Shown: piece by piece, positions 22,659 to 23,011 of the stretch
Position numbering within the stretch: position 1 is the first letter of the stretch
Layout of the letters: each line of letters begins with the position of its first letter
Source of the DNA: Escherichia phage 212
Length of the DNA stretch: 64,000 nucleotides
Strand: one strand, 5' to 3'
Sequence record: PQ765507
The notes under the pieces: model-generated
Told to the model about the DNA's origin: nothing
The model's input: only the letters and a program-made list of their open reading frames with translations
The model's database searches: none
Made by a program: the position numbers and the translations under genes

Positions 22659-22824
22659 GATTTCCGTCTTCCAGATTTTTGAAGAATATGAAATCGTGTC
22701 GCAAGACCAAGAAGCAATCCATGTTATCGCTGATGATGGGGTTACCTGGATTATTCCGTTGTATCATGAAGACACTTATGAAGTGACTGATGCAAATGGT
22801 GATAAAGCTATCTTCGTTGTATAA
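22633..22824 (+). CDS. hypothetical acidic protein
   Basis: ORF. Confidence 0.35.
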   Translation: MSAMCTGSKISVFQIFEEYEIVSQDQEAIHVIADDGVTWIIPLYHEDTYEVTDANGDKAIFVV

Positions 22825-22827
22825 ATA
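22820..22827 (+). promoter_or_regulatory. late-promoter-like TATAAATA box
   Basis: Exact TATAAATA about 16 nt upstream of GGGGGTG RBS and the small ORF at 22844. Confidence 0.45.
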
Positions 22828-22843
22828 GCGGAAAGGGGGTGTT

Positions 22844-23011
22844 ATGAAAACATTCAAAGATTTTATCAACGAAAATATGGTCGCCGGTGATGCAGGTGGA
22901 AACCCAACTAATATCGCAACAGGTACCACTTCCGGGGCAGTTGTCAATAAAGGCCCTGAACAAATCCCATCAAAAAAGCGTAAGAACAAAGACGATAAAC
23001 CTACAGTATAA
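22844..23011 (+). CDS. small Gly/Thr-rich protein with basic C-terminus (55 aa), not in ORF track
   Basis: Hand-translated MKTFKDFINENMVAGDAGGNPTNIATGTTSGAVVNKGPEQIPSKKRKNKDDKPTV; strong RBS. Confidence 0.4.
   Translation: MKTFKDFINENMVAGDAGGNPTNIATGTTSGAVVNKGPEQIPSKKRKNKDDKPTV

Follow-up and report, generated by a model that had tools for sequence, protein, structure and literature searches.

The locus between genes 41 and 61 of Escherichia phage 212 raises the question of why a very small gene in an early region should be preceded by what looks like a late promoter, and what its product might do late in infection. The window, that is, the whole stretch of 64,000 nucleotides from record PQ765507 that was analysed, belongs to a Gaprivervirus, a T4-type phage resembling SP18, VR7 and P896; the 1.7 kb surrounding the gene are 98.4% identical to P896, 98.1% to Shigella phage SP18 and 94.4% to VR7. 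The original prediction placed an exact TATAAATA box about 16 nt upstream of a strong ribosome-binding site and a 55-aa ORF just ahead of gene 61, and proposed that this ORF encodes a basic protein that is virion-associated or acts late, for example an internal or DNA-associated protein. The box is indeed present at 22820-22827 on the + strand, and the ORF with its strong ribosome-binding site was found at 22844-23011 (+ strand; 55 codons plus TAA), ahead of the primase gene that begins at 23044. The spacing requires correction, as 16 nt is the distance from the box to the ATG; the Shine-Dalgarno sequence, read directly as AAGGGGG at 22833-22839 (+ strand), begins only 5 nt past the end of the box and lies 4 nt before the ATG.

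Judged by its sequence, the ORF is gene 61.1 of the T4 family. Its translation, MKTFKDFINENMVAGDAGGNPTNIATGTTSGAVVNKGPEQIPSKKRKNKDDKPTV, matches the phrog_1823 profile over the full length (E 6.6e-32, residues 1-52 of 54 profile positions), and the protein is annotated as gp61.1, a conserved hypothetical protein, in VR7, SP18, RB69 and RB32. The gene ends at 23011, which places it just upstream of gene 61, the DNA primase gene (23044-24072, + strand; phrog_47, E 5.4e-94, and annotation in relatives); gene 41 lies upstream of 61.1 in the window, by correspondence with VR7 and P896. The order of 61.1 before 61 is also found in VR7, T4, RB43, Mexia, MY742, CC2 and MP1. Aeromonas phage CC2 (246-653) and Morganella phage MP1 (192-638) each have a long 61.1 between genes 41 and 61, all directly adjacent, and since the order is seen in these distant phages, 41 - 61.1 - 61 looks ancestral.

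This conserved synteny, together with the T4 arrangement in which the 61.1 stop codon is 2 nt from the gene 61 ATG, is what would be expected if 61.1 encoded an early or middle accessory of the helicase-primase (gp41/gp61), the TATAAATA box being either fortuitous or a means of keeping gene 61 transcribed late. Position is weak evidence of function, given that the head genes 40 and soc are also in the early region, and gp61.1 has no similarity to any replication protein; queries of Pfam and NCBIfam with both short and long forms gave no matches, and the sole detectable homologies are to head proteins (gp23 and internal protein propeptides). We therefore regard a replication role as quite improbable.

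It is clear that 61.1 is a real gene. Searches with tblastn found it in 1458 phage records, whose hosts include Escherichia, Klebsiella, Shigella, Aeromonas, Acinetobacter and Enterobacter among others, so the homologues that the original prediction proposed to look for in related phages exist across many genera. The core MVAGD...GP segment is under strong purifying selection: between lineages pN is 0.03-0.3 against a pS of 0.5-0.9, with synonymous sites saturated, and dN/dS is 0.02-0.3. A gene of only 55 codons, whose T4 product has gone undetected, might be thought a dead leftover of a partial gene 23 duplication or a spurious ORF. The number of records and genera, the strength of selection at a point where synonymous change is saturated, and the retention of a strong Shine-Dalgarno sequence all count against this, and the selection data in particular make it so very unlikely that it can hardly be entertained. 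A 137-aa antisense ORF (22615-23028) was also considered as a gene and rejected; its length varies from 37 to 163 codons across relatives and the selection is in the sense frame. A comparison of T4-like genomes in 2006 put 61.1 among the conserved ORFs without identified function (PMC1524935), and our search of the literature for functional data on gp61.1, covering accessions, capsid targeting sequences, virion proteomics and CRISPRi screens, found none.

In T4, late promoters have TATAAATA at positions -13 to -6 (PMC1524935), and the exact match at 22820-22827 is accordingly a candidate for a late promoter of this gp55-dependent kind. It shares nucleotides with the TAA stop codon (22822-22824) that ends the upstream ORF at 22633-22824. 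By the -13 to -6 rule, transcription would start at the A at 22833 on the + strand, 6 nt past the box, giving a predicted leader of 11 nt with the Shine-Dalgarno sequence at its 5' end, as in the P896 late gene with TATAAATAcagtaaaggagcaaattATG; several P896 late genes share this layout, their predicted transcripts opening directly with the Shine-Dalgarno sequence. The spacer of 16 nt between box and ATG is at the short end of the range of 17-31 nt seen in P896 late genes, and is in keeping with real late promoters. In P896, 24 of 33 boxes are followed by a Shine-Dalgarno sequence and an ATG within 150 nt, 22 of these within 70 nt. The number of boxes in the window is not itself above chance (7, against 5.4 +/- 2.2 in shuffled sequence), and it is the placement and conservation of this box that exceed it; the chance of finding an exact box 13-31 nt ahead of any one ATG on the same strand is estimated at about 8e-4 per gene. 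Four of the other boxes in the window precede known late genes, namely soc, t, 36 and 34.

The soc box (25265-25272) is 31 nt before the ATG of its gene (25304-25537) and 2.4 kb downstream of 61.1, and soc thus sets a precedent: a head gene expressed late, with a TATAAATA box to itself, among early genes. Elsewhere in the window an exact TATAAATA at 36524-36531 overlaps the stop codon of a topoisomerase (gene 39-like) ORF, 34675-36528, and precedes an ORF of 50-62 aa (36533/36569-36721, MTKYWITLATGEYGF...); this is a second candidate late promoter before a tiny early-region ORF. Masking of ribosome-binding sites in early transcripts, relieved in late ones, is known for some T4 genes, and was considered for 61.1. 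It was rejected, as the folds of 22770-22870 and 22800-22860 are weak (z -1.3 and -2.1, respectively) and hide the Shine-Dalgarno sequence to a like extent in the long and the short RNA.

The conservation of the box was followed across 48 homologous loci. In 19 of them the exact 8-mer precedes the 61.1 start by 13-24 nt. These loci represent Gaprivervirus, JS98-type, MY742-type and Marfavirus phages and one metagenomic long form, five lineages with no relation between their spacers. A further 9 loci have NATAAATA, including the AATAAATA of Mexia. T4-type phages instead have TATGAATA 9 nt from the 61.1 ATG, inside gene 61.2, and so have no usable late promoter, and a promoter-like box at 61.1 is absent from Krischvirus, 44RR, CC2, MP1 and the KP15/RB43-type phages. 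Published late-promoter predictions (PMC1524935, Additional file 5) include none near 61.1 of RB69; they do place one of 44RR (Pl:17513) inside the annotated 5' part of 61.1 and one of RB43 (Pl:17714) between 61.1 and 61. The existence of genera lacking the box indicates that late-specific expression is not essential to the family. The case for late transcription from TATAAATA is one of geometry and conservation, and on these grounds the promoter is very probably real in this phage, where it would be a lineage-specific addition and no family-wide requirement.

Two adjacent ORFs further upstream in the window (21553-22080 and 22082-22435) share the ending ...VDDQIFNAFMKR[DG], a C-terminal module that T4 gp61.2 also has (...DDQIFNAFMNRG), whose gene abuts 61.1 in T4. 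This looks like a repeated junction module, and recombination at such a joint may have deleted the late promoter in T4-type phages.

In T4 itself, 61.1 RNA is classed as early and the protein was undetected in a time-resolved proteome of the whole infection; the T4 internal protein genes are also classed as early by RNA, yet their proteins were detected and accumulate late (PMC9697503 Table S2). The early class of the T4 transcript is in keeping with the helicase-primase role set out above, as is the fact that a transcript from 22833 would enter gene 61 unless it were stopped at a hairpin that lies between the two genes. This 9-bp hairpin (23009-23030, + strand; MFE -17 kcal/mol, z -3.4) begins on the 61.1 stop codon; in the window TATAAT stands just ahead of it (within 23005-23030) and no T-run follows. 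A hairpin occurs at the same spot, with other stem sequences, in JS98-, RB69-, CC31-, Acinetobacter-, 44RR- and Cronus-type phages, and 4 of 7 pairs show compensatory changes. A T-run follows it in MY742-type and Acinetobacter phages only, and the hairpin is absent from T4, Marfavirus and KP15. It may be a weak terminator, a 3' stabiliser or a processing site. Promoter and hairpin together frame 61.1 as a compact unit; a late transcript that read through the hairpin would also cover gene 61.

The first indication of what the product might do comes from its N-terminus. Residues 1-10, MKTFKDFINE (22844-22873, + strand), resemble a capsid targeting sequence (CTS) and end in the I-x-E cleavage motif of the prohead protease gp21. 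In the T4 record the internal proteins (IPs) IPII and IPIII begin MKTYQEFIAE, IPI begins MKTFKEF and T4 gp61.1 begins MKTFKEFIKE. The first 10 residues of IPIII constitute its CTS and are enough for loading into the prohead, positions 4 and 7 being important for targeting and positions 8 and 10 for processing by gp21 (PMC9026906). The window protein carries F4, F7, I8 and E10, so that both targeting positions are aromatic, and I8-N9-E10 fits the gp21 motif I/L-x-E at positions 8-10, in register with L63-T64-E65 of gp23.

The specificity of this resemblance was assessed in the complete genome of P896, the closest relative, by scanning its 2583 ATG-initiated ORFs with 30 codons or more. Of these, 8 fit a strict CTS pattern: six in the two IP loci, gp61.1 and UvsW.1. 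With a position-specific scoring matrix (PSSM) built from IP N-termini alone, gp61.1 scored 21.8 bits and ranked 7 of 2583, directly behind the six IPs; the next ORF scored 9.3 bits, and the background had a mean of -19.8 and an sd of 6.2. The match to UvsW.1, which is not an internal protein, shows that the pattern is imperfectly specific. UvsW.1 of P896 (L044 26873-27100, outside the window) begins MKSFEEIMYEAS, with F4, I7, M8 and E10, and its fit could be chance or something more. The ORF at 9.3 bits, the top score that is neither IP nor 61.1, also lies outside the window; it encodes 127 aa beginning MLTYAEFLNR (record 153072..152689; L047 2689-3072), has TATAAATA 31 nt upstream, and may be a diverged internal protein. 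Within the 61.1 family the CTS is weak in some short forms, that of Marfavirus (MTLLEKYKQSLSE) scoring -27 bits with the IP PSSM. For the window protein, the sequence suggests that the N-terminus is an internal-protein CTS with a gp21 cleavage motif, and targeting to the prohead is predicted.

A likeness to gp23 also points to the head. Residues 2-46 of gp61.1 align by BLASTP with residues 57-101 of T4 gp23, the major capsid protein, at 44% identity (E 2e-10), and with P896 gp23 at 42% identity (E 3e-9). These 45 residues take in both the site at which gp23 is cut during maturation and the N-fist of the mature protein (gp23*). A search of the PDB with gp61.1 found gp23 chains only, residue 13 of gp61.1 aligning with residue 3 of the mature 456-residue gp23* chain, and this register puts the predicted cut after Glu10 in line with the cut between Glu65 and Ala66 of gp23. 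Residues 11-38, NMVAGDAGGNPTNIATGTTSGAVVNKGP (22874-22957, + strand), are therefore a paralogue of the gp23* N-terminus by both BLASTP and PDB alignment. The N-fist is a segment of 25 residues that is disordered inside the prohead and goes outside upon expansion; it touches four subunits and contributes to the Soc site, whereas no N-fist is present in gp24 (PMC9958956). A comparison of gp24 with gp61.1 gave no significant similarity. The invariant residues of the gp61.1 family (G-D, G, I-A, G, T, G-A, G-P) are mostly common to gp23. The HK97-like body is absent, the gp23 match being confined to gp23 residues 57-101 in a protein of 55 aa that has no Pfam match, and so gp61.1 is not a capsid protein proper; the name 'major capsid domain-containing protein' that some databases give to members picks up the gp23 similarity automatically and overstates the relationship.

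Such similarity could also mean that gp61.1 is never packaged, and is instead a cytoplasmic mimic of the nascent gp23 N-terminus that competes for a factor recognising the region of the junction and the N-fist. Candidates for this factor would be the GroEL-gp31 chaperonin, the gp21 zymogen or the scaffold, or a host sensor of capsid protein, and the effect would be to tune head assembly or to blunt a defence. The identity of 42-44% to gp23 residues 57-101 and the shared invariants are as this would require, and early 61.1 RNA in T4, before heads form, would suit it too. The gp23 N-terminal region reportedly directs fusions to GroEL, as Snyder and Tarkowski are said to have found in 2005, and the Lit-triggering Gol peptide of gp23 begins at about residue 93, just past the homologous stretch. 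Mimicry leaves unexplained, however, why the N-terminus should score 21.8 bits with the IP PSSM when the gp23 junction itself scores -19.2, and why the cleavage motif should be retained in all forms; moreover, the homology ends before the Gol region. We consider mimicry unlikely.

The last part of the protein, residues 39-55 (EQIPSKKRKNKDDKPTV; 22958-23008, + strand), is a Lys/Arg-rich tail, delimited by alignments of short and long forms, which varies apart from its conserved KK(R/K)K cluster. The description of the product as basic is thus borne out for this cluster and does not hold in general, as the processed T4 peptide is net acidic by residue count. The cleavage motif is retained as well: in both the short and the long homologues that were examined, [ILVM]-x-E stands immediately before (x)MVAGD. 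The long form (about 155 aa, phrog_2086, 618 phage records) is carried by RB69-type, CC31-type, Acinetobacter, Vibrio, Aeromonas, RB43, KP15 and Morganella phages, and has a conserved N-terminal domain of about 100 residues ahead of the module of cleavage motif, fist and KKRK, which forms its C-terminus. An AF2 model shows helices, predicted with moderate confidence, in the N-terminal domain (pLDDT 75-89 for residues 10-70) and disorder in the fist part; Foldseek comparison of the model with the PDB gave no fold match, the best E being 4. This domain resembles a long propeptide. A few relatives add a cargo-like C-terminal domain of about 100 residues after the Lys cluster. Across the family, then, the varying part is the propeptide, be it a long domain or a 10-residue CTS, while the cleavage site and the fist are constant, as expected for a protein that enters the prohead and is cut inside it. 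Its presence in the most distant relatives makes it probable that the long form is ancestral. A phmmer search (33 clusters) also returned P0133, a cadherin-like repeat surface protein of 2982 aa, in 8 stretches; this reflects Gly/Thr composition ('GTPTNADVGTTSGIV') and was judged spurious.

Taken together, the reading we favour, and hold to be reasonably probable, is that gp61.1 is a late-expressed, prohead-targeted and gp21-processed small peptide of the head. RNA polymerase with gp55 would start late at about 22833 from TATAAATA, and the short mRNA would be translated from the strong Shine-Dalgarno sequence; read-through early transcripts from the gene 41 side probably carry 61.1 as well. 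MKTFKDFINE would act as a CTS, as in IPI, IPII and IPIII, and bring gp61.1 into the scaffolding core of the prohead. There gp21 would cut after Glu10, a site aligned exactly with the Glu65/Ala66 maturation site of gp23, and so free a peptide of 45 residues with Asn11 as its new N-terminus (NMVAGDAGGNPTNIATGTTSGAVVNK). The first 28 or so residues of the released peptide would copy the gp23* N-fist, followed by the tail with its KKRK cluster, and the peptide would remain in the head, either on DNA or acidic core remnants by way of its Lys-rich tail or on the capsid surfaces that receive the gp23 N-fist. The mature parts of IPs are hypervariable anti-restriction proteins (PMC3012670). The mature part of gp61.1, unlike these, is highly conserved, which suggests a partner that is itself conserved and belongs to the phage, such as capsid, core or DNA, more than a protein of host defence.

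The late-acting, virion-associated internal protein of the original prediction is therefore only partly upheld: the CTS, the gp21 motif and the paralogy with the gp23 junction speak for it, while the late promoter is not family-wide, T4 61.1 RNA is early and the T4 protein was undetected. To our knowledge, no gp61.1 peptide has been recorded in studies of T4 heads, and a literature search for one in T4 heads turned up nothing. Nor is gp61.1 a typical internal protein. By sequence it would be grouped with the CTS-bearing internal proteins, and it departs from them in locus and in lacking hypervariability; 61.1 lies between 41 and 61, outside the IP loci, and the IPs of P896 cluster at 140.9-142.4 kb and 155.2-156.1 kb.

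A more specific version of the head-peptide proposal can be put forward as a long shot. As gp24 is without an N-fist, the N-fist sockets would be empty at the gp24 vertices, and processed gp61.1 (gp61.1*) might be a free N-fist, a capsid-cementing peptide that fills the sockets of gp23 hexamers next to a gp24 pentamer or the portal; in that case each head should contain some 55-60 copies. It would follow as a corollary that the CTS evolved from the propeptide/mature junction of gp23 via a 61.1-like fragment, and the alignment of Y4, F7, I8 and E10 of the CTS with F59, F62, L63 and E65 of gp23 supports this. Bearing on ideas about vertex composition, although outside the window, is the observation that P896 has two tandem paralogues of the vertex protein gp24 (L044 19207-20487, MAKINKLLRE..., and 20488-21771, MQKINALIHE...).

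The family is known and unnamed; the CTS, the cleavage register and the correspondence with the N-fist are absent from the papers found in our literature search. Since 61.1 is one of the few small ORFs common to T4 and very distant T4-like phages, and was catalogued by 2006 at the latest as conserved and of unknown function (PMC1524935), reading it as an N-fist copy that bears a CTS and can be cleaved by gp21 offers a concrete hypothesis for it. If this is true, a conserved component would be added to the inventory of the T4 head, the origin of the CTS, which is widely used for loading foreign proteins into T4 heads, would be tied to the maturation site of the capsid protein itself, and a soluble N-fist might be expected to help stabilise or assemble the capsid. 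If it is false, the mimicry of the gp23 N-terminus still needs explaining.

Among known systems the nearest is the orthologue in T4 (NP_049649, a hypothetical protein of 54-55 aa with about 70% identity), which has in common with the window protein the MKTF-K-[DE]-FI-x-E N-terminus, the MVAGD...GTTSGAVVNKGPEQIP core and the place before gene 61. It differs in that its gene has TATGAATA in place of TATAAATA and no downstream hairpin, and in that its tail is acidic (KKKKEESKEKEE). The long forms (phrog_2086; 155 aa in RB69-type phages and 166 aa in RB43) have the same cleavage motif, fist core, KKRK and position, whereas a helical N-terminal domain of about 100 residues replaces the 10-residue CTS; they are found in Mosigvirus, Karamvirus, Acinetobacter, Vibrio and Aeromonas phages and not in T4-, JS98- or VR7-type phages.

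Likeness to T4 IPI, IPII and IPIII lies in the small size and the matching 10-residue N-terminal propeptide for targeting and cleavage, and one P896 IP gene also has TATAAATA in front, like 61.1 of the window. The IPs are packaged with DNA and their mature parts are hypervariable, whereas gp61.1, whose packaging is predicted, has a mature part that is conserved and gp23-like. With gp23 it shares 42-44% identity over 45 residues, cleavage sites in register and the Gly/Thr-rich residues of the fist; it differs in having no HK97-fold body, in that the homology stops at about residue 101, and in that a Lys-rich tail replaces the N-arm. Finally, soc is a small late head gene with its own TATAAATA in the same early region, although its sequence is unrelated, and Soc, which is unprocessed, binds to the outside of the expanded capsid.
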